Virus record (IMG/VR): IMGVR_UViG_3300028747_000001
Reading direction: 5' to 3' (one strand)
DNA from: a virus
Length of the DNA: 48,041 nt
Made by a program: the position numbers and the translations under genes. Each line of letters starts with the position of its first letter. The first letter of the stretch is position 1. This document shows, piece by piece, positions 128-48,041 of the stretch. The notes below the pieces were generated by a model, which was not told where the DNA came from, did not search any database, and saw only the letters and a program-made list of their open reading frames with translations.

Positions 128-383
128 ACAGGATACGGGCCTGACTCGCAACGCTCGCATCCATTGCCCATGCAACGCTATCGGCCGCGAACGTATCAGA
201 CAGACCCAATACTTCGCGCATGGTTTCACGAATCATGCGCTCGATGTAGTGTTGCAACGTATCGCTATACTTCGTTGCAATCTGCCCGGCAATGAACAAC
301 GGCTTGCCGCGCACCTTTTCGATAGCGAACTGTTGCGCCCAATCGGCACGCTTACCAACAACGCGTACTTGTCGATGACCCAT
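1..383 (-). CDS. Mu F-like / SPP1 gp7-like head morphogenesis protein, 5' part. The gene wraps the window junction and continues at 47419-47914; about 292 aa in total
   Basis: The ATG at 383-381 overlaps the portal stop (TAATG). My minus-strand translation (MGHRQVRVVGKRADWAQQF...) is open to base 1 and in frame with ORF 47419-48033 after the 47,914-bp offset. Confidence 0.85.
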   Translation of the reverse strand, partial: MGHRQVRVVGKRADWAQQFAIEKVRGKPLFIAGQIATKYSDTLQHYIERMIRETMREVLGLSDTFAADSVAWAMDASVASQARILSNAMRDKFARLFASVAQPLAEKMTGAAEKDSAQKLNISLKEM

Positions 384-2074
384 TACTTTTCCTGCATGTA
401 GGTCAGCAACATGCCGTGATTCTTGAACGCTTCGACAACGAGCCGTTCAATCAGCGTATCCATTGAATCGCCGGTCGGTGAGCCTTCCGTTTCACTCACC
501 GATACCTTACCGGGCGTGCCAAGTTGCGGGCCTTCCGGGTCAGTGAATTCACCGCCGTTGACTGGTTCGCGCTCGCCTTCCTCAATCGACCGGATGGTGC
601 TGTAACCGCTGTTCTTGTCGTTGCGCAACCGTTCGTTGACGTCGGAATCGCTGATTGCACCAGTCTGGATAAGCGATAGGTCTGCGCGCGCGTTCAGTTC
701 GTTGATTTCTGCATACTCTTTTGCGGTCGGCGCATCGAGCGGCATCCAGCTAATAGTCGTCTGCGCGTGACCGCGCGTGCCGAACTTCGGAATGATGTAG
801 GCCAGTTTCGTCAACAGGTGATGACGTTCAACGAATGGCGTCAATTCGTGCATCTGCATTGATTCGAGCGTTTCACGATATGACGATTGATCGTACTCCC
901 CTTCGCTGCTAAATCCACCCGCCGCGGTACCCATGATCTTGTTGACCGGCGCGTCGCCAGCGGCACACGCTAATGCGAACTGGTTGTCGATGACTTCTGA
1001 CAGGTCGGTCAGCGCTGTATCAAGCTGCTCCATTTCGTCATCACTGCCCATGATGCGCACGCCGTAGTTGTCGCGTGCGACATTCATGAACTGCATGGAC
1101 TCATCAAACTTGTCCTTGTTTAGCATCATTTCTTCGATGCCCCCCATCTTGAGCGTATAGAGCCGCTTCGTCATGGCGAGCAACGGTGCTTCGTTGGCCG
1201 TGCGTTCCGCAGCGTACACACGTTCCATGATGGCCTGTGGTACCGGGATGCCGCCGTACAGGTAAGCAGGCTTAAGGATATCGTCGGGCTGTTCCGTGCG
1301 AAAGATGCACAGATGCGTGCGGTGATACTTCTTGCCGTTGATTTGCCACCACGTGGGTTCGTAGAAATCCGGCGACGTCGTATCGCCTGCTGCGTCACCT
1401 GACAGAATGGGCGACATCCAATACGGATCGCGCATGAACCAGCCCTTGAATGAACCGGGTCGGATGCTATCCGGGTTGAACGGTTTTTCGTAAAAGTCAG
1501 GGTCGGGCGAGTCGATGATTGGCACCGCGACGCGAATGCCGAACTTGCGACCGTTGTACGCGTAGTTGAGCAGATGTTTCATCAACTTGAATTTCTTGTC
1601 GTATCGCGCGTACTCCGCAACAACGTCATCGTCAAGTTGGTCCTCACCTACCTCGTTGATGATTTCGAAACCTTGGCGAATGGCATCGCGTGCGGGCACC
1701 AGGCAGATTTTCTTGACCAGCCAGTGTTGCGCCACGATAGCGCACGCCTGCGGCCCGATATAGGTCTGAGTGGCAAACCATTGAAAGATGGCATCCGGGA
1801 TATTCGGTTGCGCCAGTCCATACGCCGACTTGATGGCGTTCCATCCTTGCGAATCGTCATCGTCGCCAGTGCCTACCGGGGCGACCGGTCGCGGTGCCCA
1901 TGCAAGCAGATAACGATTCCACGTATCAACGATAGATTCGGTGTTCGCGCGCGATTCGTCACTGCGTACAGTATCGCCGCGATGCGTTGAAAACATCGAG
2001 CCACCAACAGGGGTATCGACGGCGGATTGCGCTGCGGTCGCGATTGTTCGTTTTTTGAACCAGCCGAAAGCCAT
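383..2074 (-). CDS. Portal protein
   Basis: 563 aa. It is the first gene of the head module, coupled to the MuF-like gene, has a GGAG SD, and has portal-typical size and position. Confidence 0.8.
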   Translation of the reverse strand: MAFGWFKKRTIATAAQSAVDTPVGGSMFSTHRGDTVRSDESRANTESIVDTWNRYLLAWAPRPVAPVGTGDDDDSQGWNAIKSAYGLAQPNIPDAIFQWFATQTYIGPQACAIVAQHWLVKKICLVPARDAIRQGFEIINEVGEDQLDDDVVAEYARYDKKFKLMKHLLNYAYNGRKFGIRVAVPIIDSPDPDFYEKPFNPDSIRPGSFKGWFMRDPYWMSPILSGDAAGDTTSPDFYEPTWWQINGKKYHRTHLCIFRTEQPDDILKPAYLYGGIPVPQAIMERVYAAERTANEAPLLAMTKRLYTLKMGGIEEMMLNKDKFDESMQFMNVARDNYGVRIMGSDDEMEQLDTALTDLSEVIDNQFALACAAGDAPVNKIMGTAAGGFSSEGEYDQSSYRETLESMQMHELTPFVERHHLLTKLAYIIPKFGTRGHAQTTISWMPLDAPTAKEYAEINELNARADLSLIQTGAISDSDVNERLRNDKNSGYSTIRSIEEGEREPVNGGEFTDPEGPQLGTPGKVSVSETEGSPTGDSMDTLIERLVVEAFKNHGMLLTYMQEK

Positions 2075-2393: not shown

Positions 2394-3143
2394 TTACAAA
2401 GTGACGGTCACTTTTACCGGGAATGCTGTCACAACGTGCTGGCCGGGGAATTTCGCCGCAGCGGTATTCGCCTCAGTATATGTGGCATAGACCGCACCTT
2501 TGATGCCGTCGAGTCCCTGATTGCGCGCGACGTTCGCATAGAGCGTGAGTTCAGATGGCGCTTTCATCTTCATACGCAAATCAGACGTCACGACCTTTTC
2601 AAGCCCACGTAGATCGCTATCTATAACTACATCATCGCCCGACATGCCGATAAATCGAGCGTCAAACCACAGCTTGCCACCTTCGTGTCCTTTTGCAACT
2701 TTGCATTGAATTGGCGCACCATCCTTTACTTTTTGCAAATCAAATGGAAACTTCACTACAAATGGTGCGACCACCGTCGATGCACTGCCGGGCAATTCCG
2801 CCACATACCAAGAAAACGTGCCGCCCGGCGACTTCTCCTGACGAAACGTTACGCCTACCTTCCCTGCCGCCTGTACACACTCCCCATGACGTTTAGAAGT
2901 GTCCTGCGCGTGTATCAACAGGTCGCGCAATGCCGTCTTGTCGCGCTCACCGGTGTCGATCTGTTCTTGCATCTTGTCGAAGTATGAGAACAAGCGTTTC
3001 GTCGCCTTGTCGACTTCTTCCTCCGTGTGTTTCAACCGCACGTCGGTGATTGCCACGTGCGGCGTGCGGCTCAAGTCGACATGCGCATAGATCGCGCGGT
3101 GCAGCGACTTGAGCAAGCTACCAAGTTCAGTTTGTTTTGCCAT
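2394..3143 (-). CDS. Hypothetical protein (249 aa)
   Basis: ATG at 3143 (MAKQTELG...) lies 15 nt after the OMP stop. The longer track ORF overlaps the OMP gene. Confidence 0.6.
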   Translation of the reverse strand: MAKQTELGSLLKSLHRAIYAHVDLSRTPHVAITDVRLKHTEEEVDKATKRLFSYFDKMQEQIDTGERDKTALRDLLIHAQDTSKRHGECVQAAGKVGVTFRQEKSPGGTFSWYVAELPGSASTVVAPFVVKFPFDLQKVKDGAPIQCKVAKGHEGGKLWFDARFIGMSGDDVVIDSDLRGLEKVVTSDLRMKMKAPSELTLYANVARNQGLDGIKGAVYATYTEANTAAAKFPGQHVVTAFPVKVTVTL

Positions 3144-3157
3144 GATTTGAATTTGTC

Positions 3158-3823
3158 CTAGAAACGATAGGTGAGAGTTACAACGTTTGCGCCGGTCACA
3201 AGGCCCGGATTGGGGTTCCACAACTGCCGCACATTGTAGTAACGGTACGACAGACTCAATGGACCGCGCGATACGCTCGCGCCGACAACATAGCCGAATT
3301 GTACTGTCGTCTTGTGGGAAAGGTCTTGCCACTGGTCGGCAAGGTTGTACAACGATTCGTGCCACGTCTGCCAGTAGGCCCAAACGCCCGCTTCGACACC
3401 AACGCGCCAGCCGTAGAGCGTATAGCCGACGTCAAGTGTCACAGGGATGCCCTGCACGTGACCATGGCCATTGAATGGGCTGAATCGTTCACCCTGGTAT
3501 CCGGTGATGCTATGCGTCTGACCGTTGTATTGATCGTCAGGCACGCCCATTACACTCGCGCGTTGCTCGCCAAGGTACGCATAGTCAGCGTGATAGCGCA
3601 CATCGACCGAACCACGCTGATATAGTTCGCCCGTGATACCAGCAGTTATAACGGGGAACGTCAACTTCTCACGATTGTCAGGTGAGCCGTCCTGAATCCA
3701 CGTGCCGTCACCCATATCTTTCGCGAGTCCGACGCCGACGCCTGCCTCAAACTGGAACCAGTCCTGTGCGTGAGCGCTAACAGATGCGAGCGCTACGGCT
3801 ACCGCGATTGCCAACTTTTTCAT
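3158..3823 (-). CDS. Outer-membrane beta-barrel protein with signal peptide (221 aa)
   Basis: MKKLAIAVAVALASVSAHA/QD signal with an AxA site, alternating hydrophobic strands, C-terminal ...TLTYRF aromatic terminus, GAGGTG SD. Confidence 0.75.
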   Translation of the reverse strand: MKKLAIAVAVALASVSAHAQDWFQFEAGVGVGLAKDMGDGTWIQDGSPDNREKLTFPVITAGITGELYQRGSVDVRYHADYAYLGEQRASVMGVPDDQYNGQTHSITGYQGERFSPFNGHGHVQGIPVTLDVGYTLYGWRVGVEAGVWAYWQTWHESLYNLADQWQDLSHKTTVQFGYVVGASVSRGPLSLSYRYYNVRQLWNPNPGLVTGANVVTLTYRF

Positions 3824-3855
3824 TTCACACCTCACATTGGTTGATGATGGTATGA

Positions 3856-3885
3856 AGTATAGAACCGTTACTAACGGTTTGGCAA
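3856..3885 (-). promoter_or_regulatory. Conserved promoter cassette with a perfect palindrome in the spacer
   Basis: Minus strand reads TTGCCA-aaccgttagtaacggttc-TATACT. The palindrome is at 3863-3879. Confidence 0.7.
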
Positions 3886-3901
3886 GTATGACCGCAAAAG
3901 A

Positions 3902-3931
3902 AAACGCCCCATCGGTCAGAATGGGGCGTTT
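3902..3931 (-). terminator. Rho-independent terminator
   Basis: Stem aaacgccccat/atggggcgttt, followed on the minus strand by TTTTCTTTT. Confidence 0.7.
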
Positions 3932-4024
3932 GGTAGTTGCAGGGCGCTCAACCGTCAGCCTTCTATATCCGGTGCCGCCGTCGCTACGCAGAACGGTCAC
4001 GGTCCAGAAAATGCAGCGCAGTTG

Positions 4025-4783: not shown

Positions 4784-4812
4784 AGTATAAACCGTTACTA
4801 ACGTTCATGCAA
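4784..4812 (-). promoter_or_regulatory. Conserved promoter cassette overlapping the terL stop codon
   Basis: Minus strand reads TTGCAT-gaacgttagtaacggtt-TATACT. The palindrome is at 4790-4806. Confidence 0.65.
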
Positions 4813-6421
4813 ACAATGACGATTTCTTTTCCTGCGGTGCGTATAGGATCATCACAGAGTCCGCATAGTTCGGCGAGCGCGTGCCGTCTGGTGTCTTGTC
4901 GATGATCATCTGACCGGCCGTGTTGATGTCGTATGTCGGCTGTGACAGTTCTGCAACAAGCTTGGTCCGTACGTGCGGCGGTATCTGTTCGCTGATGCTG
5001 ATAAGTTCGTCAGGATCAAACACCGCGCCATCCACCACCGCGCGGTGCGTCTTCTCAAAGCGCATACGCAATGACCACCATGATTGTGCTTTCAGGTTCT
5101 TGAAGAAATCTTCGTTCTTGCGCGACCCGACACCACGGTCATCGCCTTTGTAGACCAGCGCGGTAGGGTTGACGACAGCACCACTACCTTTGAACTCAGT
5201 GAACTTGCGTTGCGATCCTTTGCGGTTGTCCCGACCGTTGATCTGCGCCGCGTCGCCGCGTACACCAGCGCCAAGCCCGTCGCCGTCATACCGGCAGTTG
5301 TCATAGTCAAATTCATCACAGCGCAGGAACGCCTGTTCCGTTGTCCAGAATATTGTTTTGCCCTGACCGCTCCAGGCATCTATGTGCTGTAGCTCGATAC
5401 CATGTCGACCGGCCCATGCGTTCAGGTCAAGTCCCTCATCCGCCACATCAAGCGCCGAACGACGTTCACCTTTGATCGTGATACCGAGCTTACGCGCAGC
5501 ACCGATGGCAGATTGTATCCATGCGGAAGGTATGACAACACCCTGCTTGGATGCTGAATAGTCAAGGTCAATTTCTTGCGCAACGATAAGCGGGTTAAGG
5601 TTCTCTTTCTGCTTTTCATACCATGCCTCATCCTTGCGCGGATCGTCACGCCACTGGAAGGTGAATACACGATGTTCGGGCCAACTGTGACGCTTCTCTG
5701 CGAACGGGTTGTCAAAGCCATTGACCGAACTGATGTCAATCAGGCAATTCGTGTTCTGTGACAAAGCAGCGTCGCTCAGTTGGGGCCGTTCAATAAACGC
5801 CGCTTCGTCACGGCAATAAATGGATGCGCGACCGCCCCGGCCGATGTTGTCGCCTGCTTCACCCCGGATCACTGCGCCAGTTGACGGTATCGTGATAAGC
5901 ATCGACTTGTCGCAGTCCCGTCCACCCATGACCCAACCGCCCCGGAACTCAACTGGCAGCAATGACAGGAACATGCGGATTTTGAAAAATAGACAGTCAG
6001 GGTCACCGGCACGATCAACAAGGATTTCCTTGCGCGACCCGAATCCGCCTGTGAACCCTTCGTTAGTAACGGCCAGTGCGGTGAACAGTGACACCATCAT
6101 CCATGAAAGGCCCATATCGCGCGACTTGTCACTTACTGCAAATTCTTTGGCTTTCCAACGCTCGATGACCCATTGCAGAAACTCACGTTGACGTGGGAAC
6201 AGGATCAACGGCAGCATGGCGGGGTACTGTGAGCCGACATTACGCGGGTCATACGTACATCCCCAATCTTCGATCAGGTCGATTGGATTGTGACGATAAT
6301 GCGTCAGGACCGCTTTAAGCAACGCCGGATCGGCGCGTAGCTGATGGAGCTTGTCGACGCGCCATTGAAAGATGCGCGAGTAGTCGGGAGCACGGAAGTC
6401 GTGCGCGTAGGGGTAGGGCAT
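4805..6421 (-). CDS. terL: Terminase large subunit
   Basis: 538 aa. Walker-A-like DKSRDMGLSW (the K-S/A-R-x-x-G-x-S variant typical of TerL) and a C-terminal acidic nuclease-type region. Confidence 0.85.
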   Translation of the reverse strand: MPYPYAHDFRAPDYSRIFQWRVDKLHQLRADPALLKAVLTHYRHNPIDLIEDWGCTYDPRNVGSQYPAMLPLILFPRQREFLQWVIERWKAKEFAVSDKSRDMGLSWMMVSLFTALAVTNEGFTGGFGSRKEILVDRAGDPDCLFFKIRMFLSLLPVEFRGGWVMGGRDCDKSMLITIPSTGAVIRGEAGDNIGRGGRASIYCRDEAAFIERPQLSDAALSQNTNCLIDISSVNGFDNPFAEKRHSWPEHRVFTFQWRDDPRKDEAWYEKQKENLNPLIVAQEIDLDYSASKQGVVIPSAWIQSAIGAARKLGITIKGERRSALDVADEGLDLNAWAGRHGIELQHIDAWSGQGKTIFWTTEQAFLRCDEFDYDNCRYDGDGLGAGVRGDAAQINGRDNRKGSQRKFTEFKGSGAVVNPTALVYKGDDRGVGSRKNEDFFKNLKAQSWWSLRMRFEKTHRAVVDGAVFDPDELISISEQIPPHVRTKLVAELSQPTYDINTAGQMIIDKTPDGTRSPNYADSVMILYAPQEKKSSLFA

Positions 6422-11317: not shown

Positions 11318-11573
11318 CCCGTATCACAACAGGTTCGTCGTCATCAATCAAACGTAACTTCCATTGCTCGATGCCCAATTTATCTGACCACATGAGAACA
11401 AGTTCCGGCAAGTGCCGATGGTCATAGCCCTTAAAATCCTTGCCGTCTTCGACCACCCATGCAGGGCCGCGCGATGTATAGCCATGTTGCTCAACCAGCC
11501 GAACCACACGGTTGTGATTCTCATAGTGCTCACTGATAACGATTGCGGCACGTGCGCCGGGTTCCCATTTCAT
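11292..11573 (-). CDS. Hypothetical protein (93 aa)
   Basis: ATGA overlap with the terS stop. Confidence 0.55.
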   Translation of the reverse strand: MKWEPGARAAIVISEHYENHNRVVRLVEQHGYTSRGPAWVVEDGKDFKGYDHRHLPELVLMWSDKLGIEQWKLRLIDDDEPVVIRDGIEYVEA

Positions 11574-12385
11574 ATCGCCCCCTTCATCAGTTCCTGATAC
11601 TGTCGTGACGCCTCAAGCGGATCAACCGATACCACTGTAACCTGTTGCGCGCCCTGTGCGTTGATGCCGACCTGATTCGTTACCTGCACTGCTGGGGCGT
11701 CCTTGGCGATGTTGAACTCTTTGGCAAGCAGCGATAGCGCGTGTGCCTGGTCGCGCTGCTTTATCTCGATGCCGTCTTTCGTCACCTTCACACCAGCGAA
11801 CAGACGCTTCGCTGCGCCCCGCAATTTACGGGTGTCCTTGAATATCGTTTTCACATGACCTTCGCCCAGGCACTTAGGGCATTCCGGGTTAGGTGAACCA
11901 GTCACATCGAACCCATACCCGCCGACGTCGACCGGTAGCGGATCAAGTTCTAATGGCCCCTGCGTCATACCAATGTCACGGTTCTTTTCCCACTCGCTCT
12001 GCTTACGCGCGTTCCGGTCTATCGCCTCTGCCAGCGCAAAGCCGAACTCCGCGTCGTTTTTCCACTGATAGTGATATCCCATGCCCCAACAGTGACGGCA
12101 GCAACGAACCTGCACTTCTGACAGTTGGCTTGCATCGGCCGTTGCGATTTCAGTGATAAGGGCCAGAACACCAGCACGATCAATTGTTGCAACTGACACG
12201 GTTGCTTCGCGGGCATCTTGAACCCTCTGTTTTATCTCTGGCTTTTGCATCAACGTCCACGCGTTGTTGCTGATAGTTGATGTGAGCATGCGCCCAACGT
12301 CATATGCACGCCGATACGCTTCGGTGGCATTCCCCGTTTCGAGATATGCCAACACGAATGCATCCTGTTTTGGTGTCAATTTCAT
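11570..12385 (-). CDS. terS: Terminase small subunit with a Cys-rich C-terminal extension
   Basis: The N-terminus MKLTPKQDAFVLAYLETGNATEAYRRAYDV matches the Terminase_2-type HTH signature (LTPKQ..F...Y...GNAT.A). CxxC...CPKC pairs follow. Confidence 0.75.
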   Translation of the reverse strand: MKLTPKQDAFVLAYLETGNATEAYRRAYDVGRMLTSTISNNAWTLMQKPEIKQRVQDAREATVSVATIDRAGVLALITEIATADASQLSEVQVRCCRHCWGMGYHYQWKNDAEFGFALAEAIDRNARKQSEWEKNRDIGMTQGPLELDPLPVDVGGYGFDVTGSPNPECPKCLGEGHVKTIFKDTRKLRGAAKRLFAGVKVTKDGIEIKQRDQAHALSLLAKEFNIAKDAPAVQVTNQVGINAQGAQQVTVVSVDPLEASRQYQELMKGAI

Positions 12386-43835: not shown

Positions 43836-44999
43836 TCACAGACCGGTGAAACGCACTACTGCATACGGACGTTTGCACATCACACCGGCCGTTGCGTTGG
43901 CGTAATCTTCGACGTACGACTTGGCGCGCTTTTCCACACCAAGCGCCTGAAACTTCGACGGCACGACCTGAATGAATACCTTGCCGTCATCGCTGGAACC
44001 GTCTTCGATGCGTTCGGCGTAGAAGTACATCGCCGTTAGGCCACCGTTGGCATCCGTCAGTTCCGGGCACGTCACGATACGCAGATTCGGATAGTTGTCA
44101 CGAATCCACTGGCGAACCGAAATACCGCCAACGGACTGCGTAACGGTCAAGAACTGGTTCTTGCCCATCGGAATCGCCATCGTGATCGGCGTTTTCTCAA
44201 CGTCGATGGTATCCATGCTCTGCACTTCGAGCGTGTACATACCAAGCCGGATGTCGGCTGTGATGTCGTTGAACGTCTTGGTGTTCCACGTCGTTGTACC
44301 CGACGTCGCGCCATCAGGCAACGTGGCATAGGCAGGCAACGACGGATCGTTCAGGAACCCGTATGTGCGGCCTGCGCCGTCATTGAAGCCGTAGAAACCA
44401 ACGCGGTTGCGTTGAATGTCGAGCGCGCGACCGGCTTGACCACGCTTTTCGCCGCTCGAAGAAACGCGCATACGTGCGGCGCGCGCTTCTTCCAACAGCC
44501 CGACCAGAATGCCCATTTCGAAGCGTACGACGGTACGCCATTCGAAGTTGACGTTCCACGACGAAAGCGGAATGTTGCTGTAGTCGCCGTATGGAATCGC
44601 GTTGCCGGTCGGTTCCAGCATACCTTGCACAATCTGCTCGTCTTCCCACGAACCGATGGTTGCCATGCCAATCAGTTCATCGATCTTGCGCGCGGCGGTG
44701 ATGAAGTTGACGAAGCCGGGCATCCATGCCTGCAGGAACTGCACAAGCGCCGGAATTGCGTTGACGGACTGGATTGCGCCCGGCACCGGCAGAATGCCGA
44801 CGTCGTTGCTATCCATTGTCGCTGCCATCTTGACGGCTTCAGTCAGTTCGTGAATATACGCCTGGTCGAAGCCGATACCAATCTGCTTCAGTGCGTTGTA
44901 CTCAACGACATCCGCCTCTGATACCTCAATGGGTTTCCAGGTACGGGCACCCAACATCGAATGCGTTGGCGACACATTCTTTTCAGTGAATTTCAACAT
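43836..44999 (-). CDS. Major capsid protein (DUF2184-like, HK97-fold class)
   Basis: 387 aa. Follows the scaffold and decoration genes. A strong hairpin lies downstream. Confidence 0.75.
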   Translation of the reverse strand: MLKFTEKNVSPTHSMLGARTWKPIEVSEADVVEYNALKQIGIGFDQAYIHELTEAVKMAATMDSNDVGILPVPGAIQSVNAIPALVQFLQAWMPGFVNFITAARKIDELIGMATIGSWEDEQIVQGMLEPTGNAIPYGDYSNIPLSSWNVNFEWRTVVRFEMGILVGLLEEARAARMRVSSSGEKRGQAGRALDIQRNRVGFYGFNDGAGRTYGFLNDPSLPAYATLPDGATSGTTTWNTKTFNDITADIRLGMYTLEVQSMDTIDVEKTPITMAIPMGKNQFLTVTQSVGGISVRQWIRDNYPNLRIVTCPELTDANGGLTAMYFYAERIEDGSSDDGKVFIQVVPSKFQALGVEKRAKSYVEDYANATAGVMCKRPYAVVRFTGL

Positions 45000-45061: not shown

Positions 45062-45577
45062 TTACAGATTGATCTTGAGCAGAATCAGCGCGCCGCCTTC
45101 CGACGTTTGGCCGTAGTCTTCGACCGTTGCCGCCAGCAACGTGTTGCCCGCATCAGGCGTACCGGCAGCGGCCGGAATCGAGATTTGACCGGTAGCGGTA
45201 GCAAACTGCACTTGCAGACCAGCTACCGCCGCCTTGGTGCCGTACAACGGAACGATGACCTTACCGAATTCAACGAAGTCGGCTGTAACGTTGTTGGGCA
45301 ACAGGAAGTTCGGCGCGAGCGGACCATTGGAATTGCCCATCGAAACGTGCTGCTTCGGATTGGCAAGGATGCCCCATACCGCGCCCGTACCACCCGGCCC
45401 GACCGTTTTGCCATCGGCATTCAACGTAAACACGTTGCCGAATGAATTGTTCGTCGTGACGCCACCGGCCGCAAGCAGATAGCCGATATGTGCCCGCAAC
45501 GGGCCGTCACGCGAGATTTCGCCGGGGATGCCGAACCCGAAATCGTAGTTGATTGCTTGTTGAAAAGTACCAGCCAT
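45062..45577 (-). CDS. Head decoration/cement-like protein (171 aa)
   Basis: Position between the scaffold and capsid genes. Gly/Ala-rich beta-type sequence. Confidence 0.5.
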   Translation of the reverse strand: MAGTFQQAINYDFGFGIPGEISRDGPLRAHIGYLLAAGGVTTNNSFGNVFTLNADGKTVGPGGTGAVWGILANPKQHVSMGNSNGPLAPNFLLPNNVTADFVEFGKVIVPLYGTKAAVAGLQVQFATATGQISIPAAAGTPDAGNTLLAATVEDYGQTSEGGALILLKINL

Positions 45578-45619: not shown

Positions 45620-47407
45620 TTACTTGCGTTCGGCAATCTGCTTGGACATGAACGACGGCTTCCTGCTTTTGTCGGCCGCGTCGCCAGCGGTAGCAGTAGG
45701 CAGTTGGTGAGCAGGCAGGCGCTTGTGCAACCAGGCTTCAAGCGCCGTCACTTCCTGACCCTTGCTTGCCGGAATTTCCAGCGCCTTGACGGCGTATTCA
45801 GCGACGTCCTGCGCGTCCATGGCAACGGCGATGTTGGCGAAATCAGCGATGTGCGGGCCGCACTTCTTGACCAGCGCGTCACGATCAGCAACGACACGAA
45901 CCACTTCACGCGCGTCCATACCTTTGCCCATACCAGCGACGGCCTTCTTGACTGCAGCATCAACGATGCGTGCGACTTCCGCAGCGTCCATGCCTTTGCC
46001 TTCCTTCTCGCCTTCGTCGGGTTTCTTCTTCGTCGGGTCGTCAGCATCGAGTCCGTTCGCGTCCTTCTTGCGTTCGTCGCCGGGCATCTGCGCGGTGTCG
46101 CCAACCGGCGTTGACGGTGCGCCGTCTTCGTCCATGCCGAGTTCGTCAGATTCACCAACGCACTTGATATCTTCGAGCGCTTCGAGCAGCGGCACGGCCT
46201 TGTTGATGGCATCAACGGCCTGCTTCATTTCACCACCATCGTCCTTGCCATCCTTGATTGCTTCTTCTGCGTCCATGGCAAAGGCCATCAGGCGGTTTTT
46301 GACCGTGCCTGCAAGCGTCTTTGTTTTGGCGCGAATCAGCTTCGCCTTTTGATCTTTGGTCATTGCAGATTTCTCCGTAGTTGATAGACCATCCATAACA
46401 GCAACTTCCGGCCCCATTCGACCGTCATCGACTGATGCCAGATGGTTGAAACGGATGCGCCGTTGCACATAAGTATAAGGCACACCCTCAAACACCCCCG
46501 GCGCATACTCGTATACACAACGGTAACCGAGTGACAACGGGGTTTTACCCGACGCAATGCTTGCGGCGAGAAATTCGGACCAGCACATGATGTTGGTTTT
46601 CAACGTTCCATAATCATCGTTGGGGTCGAACCAACCACGTTCACCAGTAACGCCACGTGCTTTCTTTTCTTCAATCTGGACTGTTCCGCCCGTACCATCG
46701 CCAATCATCGTATGATCGATGATCCACGGTTTCAGACGTAACGTTGCGATACAGGCCGGGTCTGCCAGTTCTGATGCTGGACGATATACCGCAAAGAACT
46801 GACCCGCATTGCCCTTGTCGATTTCCTGTGGAATGTTCTTGCCAAGGTAGTTAAATACACCGACCTTTGACACCGGGTTGTCCATTACTTCAAAGAACCC
46901 GTTGATATCCCACTGCTTGACGGTATCTGACCTGTCACCTGCAATTGCATTGAATATGCAGGCGATGACATTGGCGCTGCAACCATGCAACGGCGTTGGC
47001 AATGCGTCGAGCGTGAACCAGCCTGAGCCGATATGTTCGTCATTCAATACCGCATCGAATGGTTCGACGTCGGCAAAGAAAGCAGTAAAGAAACCGTCAA
47101 ATACGCCGATGTTTGTCAAATCGCCCTGATGCGCGTGTTGTACTTCCTCGATTGTCTCGCGCCGCGCTGCCGCTTCCGGTGTCTCACCTTCCTCAATCGT
47201 TCCGGCCGGAAAACCCCATTCGCCGTTAGGTCGTTGCAGCATCAGGATTTTACCGTTGGCATGATAGACAACGCCCGCTGCGGTCGACGCGTCGCCTGCC
47301 GTTGCATAGGCAATCGCAACGGCCTGCTTCTGTGGCTTGCCTGCCGCTTCTTCAGTTGCGACGTTCTTGCCGAATGCTTCTTTCGTACCGCTTTTATCCA
47401 ATGGCAT
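45620..47407 (-). CDS. Fusion of a Nudix hydrolase domain (about aa 42-150) to a DUF2213-like head scaffold/maturation protein with an acidic coiled-coil C-terminus
   Basis: Nudix box GTIEEGETPEAAARRETIEEVQ (G-x5-E-x7-RE-x2-EE) at 47135-47203. DUF2213-type ...VQRRIRFNHLASVDDGRMG.... Position after the MuF-like gene. Confidence 0.75.
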   Translation of the reverse strand: MPLDKSGTKEAFGKNVATEEAAGKPQKQAVAIAYATAGDASTAAGVVYHANGKILMLQRPNGEWGFPAGTIEEGETPEAAARRETIEEVQHAHQGDLTNIGVFDGFFTAFFADVEPFDAVLNDEHIGSGWFTLDALPTPLHGCSANVIACIFNAIAGDRSDTVKQWDINGFFEVMDNPVSKVGVFNYLGKNIPQEIDKGNAGQFFAVYRPASELADPACIATLRLKPWIIDHTMIGDGTGGTVQIEEKKARGVTGERGWFDPNDDYGTLKTNIMCWSEFLAASIASGKTPLSLGYRCVYEYAPGVFEGVPYTYVQRRIRFNHLASVDDGRMGPEVAVMDGLSTTEKSAMTKDQKAKLIRAKTKTLAGTVKNRLMAFAMDAEEAIKDGKDDGGEMKQAVDAINKAVPLLEALEDIKCVGESDELGMDEDGAPSTPVGDTAQMPGDERKKDANGLDADDPTKKKPDEGEKEGKGMDAAEVARIVDAAVKKAVAGMGKGMDAREVVRVVADRDALVKKCGPHIADFANIAVAMDAQDVAEYAVKALEIPASKGQEVTALEAWLHKRLPAHQLPTATAGDAADKSRKPSFMSKQIAERK

Positions 47408-47418
47408 CGCAACGCCCC

Positions 47419-48041
47419 TTATTCGTCGTCATCGTTGAATCTGAAAATCGGCCGCATCGTACACCGGCAATATGGTGCCTGGCCGGGTATGCCTTTCTCG
47501 CCGGTATTAGGTCCGTCAAGGTGCGGCAGATTGTCGAAGCTAAATATTTTACCGTTCAATACGTCACGGTGATATTCGCGGGGGTGATTGCTACCCCCGC
47601 TATGCACCCATTCAAACTCTTTGACGCCCAACGCCTGCATACGCGCGGCGTTGATTCCGTTGTATGCCTTGCGTGTCTGGTCAAGCGCGACATTCTTTGC
47701 CCAATTCTTGACAGTCACGCCGTACTTGTCGAGTTCGGGTTTAAGGTCTGCCAGCCCCTGACCCGATTGAATCGAGCGCATCACCGCACCCTGTACATTA
47801 TCCAGATACTTTTCAGGGATACGTTTGATAAGCGCTACATTCTCCGCAACGCTGGCTGTCAGCACATCGCGTAGCTGGTCGTTGAAAACGTTAGTTTTTA
47901 GAACGTACTGACCACTCATTTCTTTAAGGCTGATATTCAACTTCTGTGCGCTATCCTTTTCCGCAGCACCGGTCATCTTCTCTGCTAACGGTTGCGCGAC
48001 AGATGCGAATAGTCTGGCAAACTTGTCGCGCATCGCATTTG
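47419..48041 (-). CDS. Mu F-like head morphogenesis protein, 3' part (same gene as 1-383)
   Basis: C-terminal ...HPREYHRDVLNGKIF...APYCRCTMRPIF matches the Mu F/SPP1 gp7 signature. 47915-48041 duplicates 1-127. Confidence 0.85.
   Translation of the reverse strand, partial: NAMRDKFARLFASVAQPLAEKMTGAAEKDSAQKLNISLKEMSGQYVLKTNVFNDQLRDVLTASVAENVALIKRIPEKYLDNVQGAVMRSIQSGQGLADLKPELDKYGVTVKNWAKNVALDQTRKAYNGINAARMQALGVKEFEWVHSGGSNHPREYHRDVLNGKIFSFDNLPHLDGPNTGEKGIPGQAPYCRCTMRPIFRFNDDDE
47915..48041. repeat. Terminal overlap, second copy of 1-127
   Basis: Identical 127-mer. Confidence 0.95.

Follow-up and report, generated by a model that had tools for sequence, protein, structure and literature searches.

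A Nudix hydrolase domain carried by a Pa193 gp24-type scaffolding protein: a candidate capsid-targeted cargo enzyme in an uncultured phage

The question addressed here is why a Nudix hydrolase domain should be joined covalently to an internal protein of a phage head, as it is in one 595-amino-acid open reading frame (ORF) of the IMG/VR virus record IMGVR_UViG_3300028747_000001, the 48,041-nucleotide stretch of DNA that was analysed and that is referred to below as the window. The best explanation, held with somewhat better than even confidence, is that the Nudix domain is a cargo enzyme which is loaded into the capsid on the scaffolding protein to which it is fused, and which is most likely delivered with the DNA to the next host. 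Both this class of fusion and the idea of packaging were already published as a computational prediction in 2022 by Iyer, Burroughs, Anantharaman and Aravind (Viruses 14:1977, PMC9503650), who described head-protein-fused “T4 NudE-like” Nudix domains and proposed that they are packaged and injected; the window is an uncultured further example, and the initial annotation's picture of phage Nudix enzymes as early proteins that stand alone is out of date. What is new here is the identification of the carrier as a Pa193 gp24-type scaffold (Pa193 gp24 itself being seen in mature virions), a negative fold test of the “protease” label, evidence for strong constraint on a Nudix that is nevertheless accessory, and a tripartite modularity at the junction between the MuF and scaffold genes.

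Architecture of the fusion and identity of its carrier

The ORF lies on the minus strand. Its ATG start is located 11 nucleotides after the stop codon of the MuF gene and is accompanied by an AAGGGG motif resembling a Shine-Dalgarno (SD) sequence, and its stop codon occupies 45620-45622. An N-terminal Nudix domain with an intact catalytic box, a DUF2213-type remainder and an acidic tail had been proposed for this protein from the letters of the sequence, and all of these elements were recovered by profile searches and by an AlphaFold2 (AF2) model of the 595-amino-acid protein, which was built on 78 homologues and has a mean predicted local distance difference test score (pLDDT) of 80. The parts of the protein, with positions in amino acids (aa), are as follows.

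45620..47407, minus strand: whole ORF, 595 aa, a single polypeptide that joins the N-peptide, the Nudix and the DUF2213 scaffolding protein (end-to-end match to phrog_3778, aa 1-582, E 1e-99)
47288..47407, minus strand: N-terminal helical hairpin of about 40 aa (MPLDKSGTKEAF...KQAVAIAYA), an optional module (phrog_2423, aa 1-39)
46973..47284, minus strand: Nudix hydrolase domain, aa 42-145 (PF00293, E 3e-15; AF2 pLDDT >90 over aa 43-145)
47135..47203, minus strand: Nudix box GTIEEGETPEAAARRETIEEVQH, aa 69-91, with REx2EE intact (motif position in the translation)
46910..46972, minus strand: connecting helix and short flexible linker, aa 146-166, or 144-164 in the AF2 model (pLDDT <50 at aa 157-162)
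46391..46909, minus strand: DUF2213 / Pa193_gp24 beta-rich domain, aa 167-339, or 172-340 in the AF2 model (PF09979, E 1e-30)
46169..46357, minus strand: helical segment, aa 351-413, a helix-acidic turn-helix with helices at 365-385 and 393-413 (AF2 secondary structure)
45989..46162, minus strand: disordered acidic linker, aa 416-473, isoelectric point (pI) 4.2 (AF2 pLDDT 31-36; charge calculation)
45623..45985, minus strand: helical domain at the C-terminus, aa 475-595, or 475-560 in the AF2 model, whose conservation extends to the end of Pa193 gp24 (AF2 pLDDT 84-95)

The two helices of the hairpin are modelled at aa 9-21 and 26-36 with a pLDDT of about 90. The match to PF09979 scores 107 bits against a gathering cut-off of 22, and the segment RIRFNHLASVDDGRMG, which had been quoted as typical of a DUF2213 head protein, corresponds to aa 318-333 and lies inside that domain. 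The acidic tail takes the form of the disordered linker at aa 416-473, flanked by helices. No nested internal start with an SD motif, from which a Nudix-less scaffold might be made in the manner of lambda C/Nu3, was found at the Nudix/DUF2213 boundary, so the Nudix domain would be made in a 1:1 ratio with the scaffold. The occurrence of the same architecture in about 100 independent homologues of 33-83% identity excludes an artefact of assembly or frameshift.

The only solved relative of the carrier is chain G of PDB entry 9B40, the “scaffolding protein” gp24 of Pseudomonas phage Pa193 (E 6e-26). The relationship extends to both ends of the carrier: the DUF2213 domain is 32% identical to aa 6-177 of gp24, and aa 500-560 of the fusion are 39% identical to aa 384-442 (BLASTP). 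PF09979 has been renamed Pa193_gp24 in newer Pfam releases, and the carrier gene has MuF on one side and the cement gene, followed by that for the major capsid protein, on the other, as in the PF09979 scaffold family. By homology, the carrier is a Pa193 gp24-type scaffolding protein, related to a protein that has been detected in mature virions by liquid chromatography coupled with mass spectrometry (LC-MS) and by cryo-EM, where residues 286-326 of gp24 make up a helix-turn-helix whose pentamer sits as a plug on the inner side of the capsid at every five-fold vertex (PMC11456595). The helical segment at aa 351-413, in which the family motif GELAxxxxxIxxxAPLLE is conserved, is a candidate counterpart of this capsid-binding element on the basis of the model; the helix-acidic turn-helix at aa 365-413 is too divergent for a confident MAFFT alignment to residues 286-326. 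The two proteins share the DUF2213 N-domain and the C-terminal helical domain, and the genes around them follow the order MuF, small genes, gp24, cement and capsid. They differ in that Pa193 gp24 has neither the Nudix nor the N-peptide, the latter being encoded in Pa193 by a separate upstream gene of 68 aa, Pa193_038.

DUF2213 proteins are labelled “head maturation protease” or “prohead serine protease” in PHROGs and UniProt, and the initial annotation had likewise given the carrier a joint scaffold/maturation identity. The scaffold half of this identity stands through the homology with Pa193 gp24, while the protease half finds no support in fold searches. A model of the DUF2213 domain by itself (predicted template modelling score 0.74) was compared with the PDB by Foldseek, which gave a best E of 1.0 and no protease among the 50 matches listed; in Pfam at E up to 10, DUF2213 alone was matched and no protease family. 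Comparison of the same model with BFVD returned other DUF2213 proteins together with a weak tail to XkdF-like putative proteases. Six residues of the domain are invariant across the family (D167, H232, S292, H322, R330 and D339), and the invariance of H232, S292, H322, D167 and D339 implies that a conserved functional site exists. A prohead protease of the T4 gp21, HK97 gp4 or assemblin type was considered and the label was not adopted, there being no PDB fold match despite the invariant His-Ser-His. Protease activity is neither supported nor excluded by these sequence and model comparisons.

Distribution and constraint of the Nudix domain

The fusion is common in metagenomic sequence. A search of a 5.8-billion-protein database with the fusion gave 334 matches at E <= 1e-5, and among the 120 homologues listed about 100 combine Nudix with DUF2213, many of them on contigs of about 47-48 kb. 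One entry of BFVD/UniProt, which comes from an uncultured phage, is a 554-aa “Nudix_Hydrolase domain containing protein” with 49% identity. In order to follow the Nudix domain independently of its carrier, it was searched alone against 1.84 billion cluster representatives (clustered at 50% identity). At E <= 1e-10, 165 clusters were matched, of which the best 150 were classified by the context of the domain.

DUF2213 fusions: at least 75 of the best 150 Nudix clusters
Short stand-alone proteins: 38 of the best 150
MuF fusions: 3 of the best 150, one of which (P0134) has the Nudix embedded within MuF
Polyvalent protein of 1,956 aa with portal, Nudix, ART-PolyVal and DUF7178: 1 of the best 150
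Long proteins with the partner unassigned: about 33 of the best 150

The initial annotation had envisaged that the fusion might turn out to be both common and already characterised: it is common, as phrog_3778 and the DUF2213 share of the best 150 clusters indicate, and experimental characterisation did not come to light. A tblastn search found no cultured phage matching at least 80% of the 595-aa protein, so the GenBank phage collection holds no annotated orthologue with experimental data, and a nucleotide search of GenBank phages revealed no near relative of the window.

The domain is found on other head proteins and alone. The same Nudix subfamily forms the C-terminus of the portal proteins gp17 of Burkholderia phage Bcep781 and gp18 of phage Bcep1, with gapless alignments at 53-55% identity. 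Two Burkholderia phages, Bm1 and BCSR129, encode it on its own, in a gene that lies between those for MuF and DUF2213 (44% identity). The polyvalent protein, P0158, has its portal region at aa 112-467, Nudix at 818-931, ART-PolyVal from 953 and DUF7178 at about 1788-1894, and joins this Nudix clade directly to an ADP-ribosyltransferase (ART) on a portal carrier.

Relatives at 51-60% identity that have no Nudix keep an otherwise collinear head module, and no relocated Nudix was found in them on the portal, on MuF or within about 7 kb on either side. The Nudix is thus dispensable for head assembly, and its absence from close relatives marks it as accessory cargo. When mapped on a tree of the DUF2213 region, possession of the Nudix appears to be the ancestral condition of the clade, with about 7 changes of state, mostly losses; the N-peptide was gained or lost about 14 times.

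This distribution bears directly on the suggestion that the Nudix is morphogenetic, acting for example as a nucleotide-binding or nucleotide-hydrolysing regulator of scaffold oligomerisation, of capsid size or maturation timing, or of DUF2213 as a protease. Such a role would suit a domain translated 1:1 with the scaffold, and the protease variant can draw on the invariant H232, S292 and H322, which could form a catalytic centre, on the “head maturation protease” label in PHROGs and on the weak structural tail to XkdF-like putative proteases in BFVD. A regulator of assembly is difficult to reconcile with the relatives that build the same head module and have no Nudix, be it on the portal, on MuF or in the vicinity, with the roughly 7 gains or losses that took place independently and with the occurrence of the same Nudix as a stand-alone gene; among the PDB matches of the DUF2213 model, known prohead protease folds are absent. 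A morphogenetic role is considered improbable.

The box GTIEEGETPEAAARRETIEEVQH fits the pattern GX5EX7REUXEE, with the G, the E and REx2EE all present. At the xGU end of the 23-residue box consensus, VQH is found here, while most homologues have TGY or TGH. The strict pattern GX5EX7REX2EE is intact in 103 of 105 Nudix-bearing homologues, which range from 33 to 100% identity. Two homologues, P0055 and P0018, have the substituted forms REtfKE and RQtiEE and may be natural inactive variants. Comparison of the window with Bcep781 gives 55% identity for the Nudix and just 23-32% for the portal, MuF, scaffold and capsid proteins; as judged by such comparisons, the Nudix is under strong constraint although it is accessory. 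A Foldseek search of the PDB with the modelled domain returned Nudix enzymes only (MutT-like 4dyw, NudC 7e44/5iw5, the Ap4A hydrolases 3i7u/1ktg, YmfB and RppH), with a probability of 1.0 to 4dyw, 3i7u, 1ktg and 7e44 and a target-normalised template modelling score of up to 0.76. From sequence and model together, the domain is apparently catalytically competent. The notion that it is a decaying or dead passenger, or that the fusion is an artefact of assembly or annotation, could appeal to the deviant VQH at the end of the box and to the two homologues with substituted REx2EE. This notion is already largely refuted and very improbable, because the metal-binding REx2EE and the upstream G and E are intact across deep divergence, the Nudix is more conserved than its carriers, its model is of high confidence, and the same arrangement of domains is met again on about 100 independent contigs and as a PHROG family.

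Proposed capsid loading of the enzyme and competing explanations

The favoured explanation may be set out as a series of steps. A Pa193-gp24-type scaffold would carry two optional N-terminal passengers, the helical hairpin of about 40 aa and the Nudix pyrophosphohydrolase; the scaffold part would, by homology, co-assemble with the capsid protein within the procapsid; and each scaffold copy, given that no internal start was found, would bring one Nudix domain with it into the lumen of the capsid. Virions made in this way would be preloaded with Nudix and would release it along with their DNA into the next host, where the enzyme would hydrolyse a nucleoside-diphosphate-linked (NDP-X) compound ahead of any phage gene expression. 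The best guess for this compound is one derived from ADP-ribose or NAD, with dinucleoside polyphosphates or NAD-type RNA caps as alternatives. The fusion probably loads the Nudix into the capsid; encapsidation, survival of maturation, ejection and the identity of the substrate are all inferred.

The C-terminus of the portal protein and MuF face or occupy the capsid lumen. The attachment of the same Nudix clade to three head proteins (scaffold, portal and MuF) is most simply read as selection that favours the enzyme inside the head. The proposal of the initial annotation that the fusion targets the Nudix to the capsid interior is a prediction still, and one that is strengthened by the homology of the carrier to Pa193 gp24, by the attachments to portal and MuF and by the accessory distribution of the domain. 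The presence of an ART beside the Nudix in the polyvalent portal protein gives contextual support for a substrate related to NAD or ADP-ribose. The sheath, baseplate, tape-measure, spanin and replication genes present in the window indicate that the phage is contractile-tailed, which agrees with the bias of packaged NAD- and ADP-ribose-processing enzymes towards myoviruses (PMC9503650).

The comparison with known systems helps to define what is particular about this fusion. Iyer et al. reported Nudix domains on MuF, on portal or on a capsid-processing/scaffold-type protein, in late gene clusters and mostly in myoviruses, and argued that Nudix, Macro and NADAR domains counter low-molecular-weight, ADP-ribose-derived immune signals, especially in myoviruses (PMC9503650). 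The hypothesis of packaging, injection and the countering of signals derived from NAD+ or ADP-ribose is the same here. Their work is a computational survey in which the partner is called a “capsid-protein-processing serine peptidase” (PMC9503650), whereas the partner in the window is a scaffold of the Pa193 gp24 type in which no protease fold was detected. Bcep781 and Bcep1 have the same Nudix subfamily, a similar myovirus genome of about 48 kb and the same order of head genes; in Bcep781 the Nudix is on the C-terminus of the portal, present in 12 copies per virion and certain to be in the virion, whereas in the window it is on the N-terminus of the scaffold, present in many copies and uncertain to be retained. 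The MuF-effector fusions and the polyvalent proteins (PMC9503650) resemble the fusion in that an accessory enzyme is placed on an internal head protein and is variably present among relatives, and members of this same Nudix clade are found within MuF fusions and within the portal-Nudix-ART polyvalent protein. Classical MuF fusions have a C-terminal toxin or ART, whereas here the carrier is a scaffold and the passenger is N-terminal. The general concept of head-packaged proteins that are delivered with the DNA before phage gene expression is familiar from T4 Alt and IPI-III (PMC9503650, introduction). The targeting here differs from that of Alt and IPI-III in being achieved by covalent fusion to a scaffold, the passenger is acidic, and there is no homology. 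In T4, a short N-terminal capsid-targeting sequence is cleaved by the gp21 protease, and the internal proteins are basic.

A number of points weigh against the cargo explanation, some of them bearing on retention of the enzyme in the virion and others on the substrate. The Nudix domain is strongly acidic, with a pI of 4.45 and a net charge of -12. In T4, the internal proteins that share the head with packed DNA are basic, and expulsion at packaging is the usual fate of acidic scaffolds; the acidity of the Nudix is a mild argument against its retention beside packed DNA. Hundreds of 13-kDa domains per procapsid would be a large cargo if all copies of the scaffold stayed. In Pa193, where gp24 lacks a Nudix, it was left open whether the remainder of gp24 is cleaved off or flexibly attached (PMC11456595), and a search of the literature turned up neither proteomics of virions nor enzymology for this family of Nudix fusions.

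As regards the substrate, the Foldseek comparison gives no clear winner among the MutT, NudC, Ap4A hydrolase and RppH types, all NCBIfam equivalogs fall far below cut-off for this Nudix, and a PDB sequence search made for substrate assignment returned generic Nudix matches alone; the generic character of all three sets of matches means that the substrate is not assignable from them. The classical specificity motifs downstream of the box are a proline about 16 residues past it in ADP-ribose pyrophosphatases and SQPWPFPxS in NudC; neither is evident in this Nudix on inspection by eye only. T4 NudE (gene e.1), a phage Nudix whose annotated substrates are FAD, Ap(n)A, ADP-ribose and NADH and whose gene adjoins the lysozyme and internal-protein genes, is free-standing and just 28% identical over 76 aa (BLASTP pairwise E 1e-6), so the assignment of this copy to the NudE clade of Iyer et al. 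is weak. No other gene related to NAD or ADP-ribose is recognisable in the window.

The main rival explanation has the Nudix at work late in infection, inside the cell that makes the phage. The fusion, like the location in the head module generally, would then serve only for high co-expression with the capsid proteins, and the enzyme would leave or be degraded with the scaffold at packaging rather than be injected. A late-acting Nudix could degrade the signals or NAD products of defences triggered by capsid, portal or scaffold, or could clean the nucleotide pool. The strong acidity of the domain, which it shares with expelled scaffolds, is in keeping with such a role, as is the free-standing Nudix of Bm1, which lies in the same late operon with no physical tether; Iyer et al. 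themselves raise the alternative of countering immunity aimed at packaging components (PMC9503650), and capsid-sensing Thoeris/TIR systems are documented (PMC12578639, PMC11312562). What co-expression alone leaves unexplained is the repeated covalent joining to three lumen-facing head proteins, including the C-terminus of the portal and the interior of MuF, and the position next to an ART in the polyvalent portal protein, which belongs to a class interpreted as injected effectors. A late role is a serious possibility that is nevertheless regarded as unlikely.

A more specific form of the cargo explanation, to which a low probability is attached, makes the scaffold itself the delivery vehicle: after maturation, about 55 scaffold remnants would stay anchored at the five-fold vertices, as for Pa193 gp24, and would still carry the Nudix or release it by cleavage; the active domain would be ejected with the DNA and would destroy a nucleotide immune signal or an NAD-derived molecule in seconds. 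Its targets may include cyclic ADP-ribose-type Thoeris signals, ADP-ribose derivatives or NAD-capped RNA. If this form were true, the fusion would be the first experimentally tractable scaffold-borne, pre-loaded anti-defence enzyme. If it is true more generally that the Nudix is encapsidated and ejected, then phages pre-load the virion with an enzyme that degrades small molecules, a form of counter-defence that precedes phage transcription and that would matter for timing-dependent signalling defences such as Thoeris, CBASS, type III CRISPR and NADase effectors. The family is convenient for testing because it offers natural relatives with and without the Nudix and the same domain on portal, MuF and scaffold; two of these arrangements are available in cultured phages, the portal fusion in Bcep781 and Bcep1 and the free-standing form in Bm1 and BCSR129.

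Modules at the MuF/scaffold junction and the surrounding genome

The N-terminal hairpin, with the motif “MPLxKG..K.A...NI..E..AGK..KQA.AIAY”, is an independent mobile module without a Pfam family. It occurs as separate genes of 63-68 aa at the same MuF/scaffold junction in Pa193 (Pa193_038, L003:3131-3337) and Bm1 (CDS_0011, L002:5392-5583). To judge from gene order, Pa193_038 may be the Pa193 “gp21” found in virions by LC-MS. The junction between MuF and the DUF2213 scaffold is a hotspot of insertion in related phages, where RusA, a reverse-strand gene, Nudix, the N-peptide gene and small ORFs are found. Examples are RusA on the opposite strand in Bcep781 (L001:7286-7867), a gene of 209 aa on the opposite strand (L006:3034-3663), and the corresponding stretches of Bm1 (L002:4977-6020) and Pa193 (L003:3131-3985).

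The ends of the window are formed by an exact direct repeat of 127 bp (1-127 and 47915-48041), which shows that the assembly is circular and complete, with a length of 47,914 bp. After circularisation, the head module on the minus strand runs in the order portal, MuF, 595-aa fusion ORF, cement/decoration and major capsid.

383..2074, minus strand: portal protein, 563 aa, without Nudix in this phage (phrog_4660, phrog_146, TIGR01555)
47419..48041, minus strand: MuF-like head morphogenesis gene, 3' part (PF04233, phrog_324)
45062..45577, minus strand: cement/decoration protein, 171 aa, of the E217 gp24 / Pam3 gp6 type (PF22758, phrog_3645)
43836..44999, minus strand: major capsid protein (PF09950, phrog_264)

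The fusion gene had been placed between the MuF and capsid genes, which is accurate on the MuF side; on the capsid side the cement gene intervenes. The point of linearisation splits the MuF gene, which crosses the circular junction into 128-383 of the window, encodes about 292 aa in all when the junction is reconstructed, and has a start that overlaps the portal stop near 383.

The profile phrog_30637 (1,119 aa, function unannotated) matches the window portal at aa 247-507 through its positions 2-260, and its positions 730-1041 also match the fusion protein at aa 153-499; a single profile that matches both implies that, in some phages, portal and scaffold are fused in one protein.

No tRNA genes were found in the window, and no large terminase (TerL) was recognised among the window ORFs scanned. 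An ORF of 538 aa (4805-6421, minus strand) lies upstream of the portal gene at the position expected for the large terminase. It has no Pfam or PHROG match and no similarity to the TerL of Bcep781, and the relative L005 has a counterpart of 535 aa in the same place. PHROGs named “terminase small subunit” are matched by 11570-12385, at a distance from the head module. Two long overlapping ORFs on the minus strand, 2394-3383 and 3158-4000, lie in the interval that separates the portal gene from the putative packaging region, and the second of them has a weak, sub-threshold match to the outer-membrane beta-barrel domain PF13505 (E 1.7e-4); in L005, a GDSL lipase gene is found just upstream of the portal gene instead.

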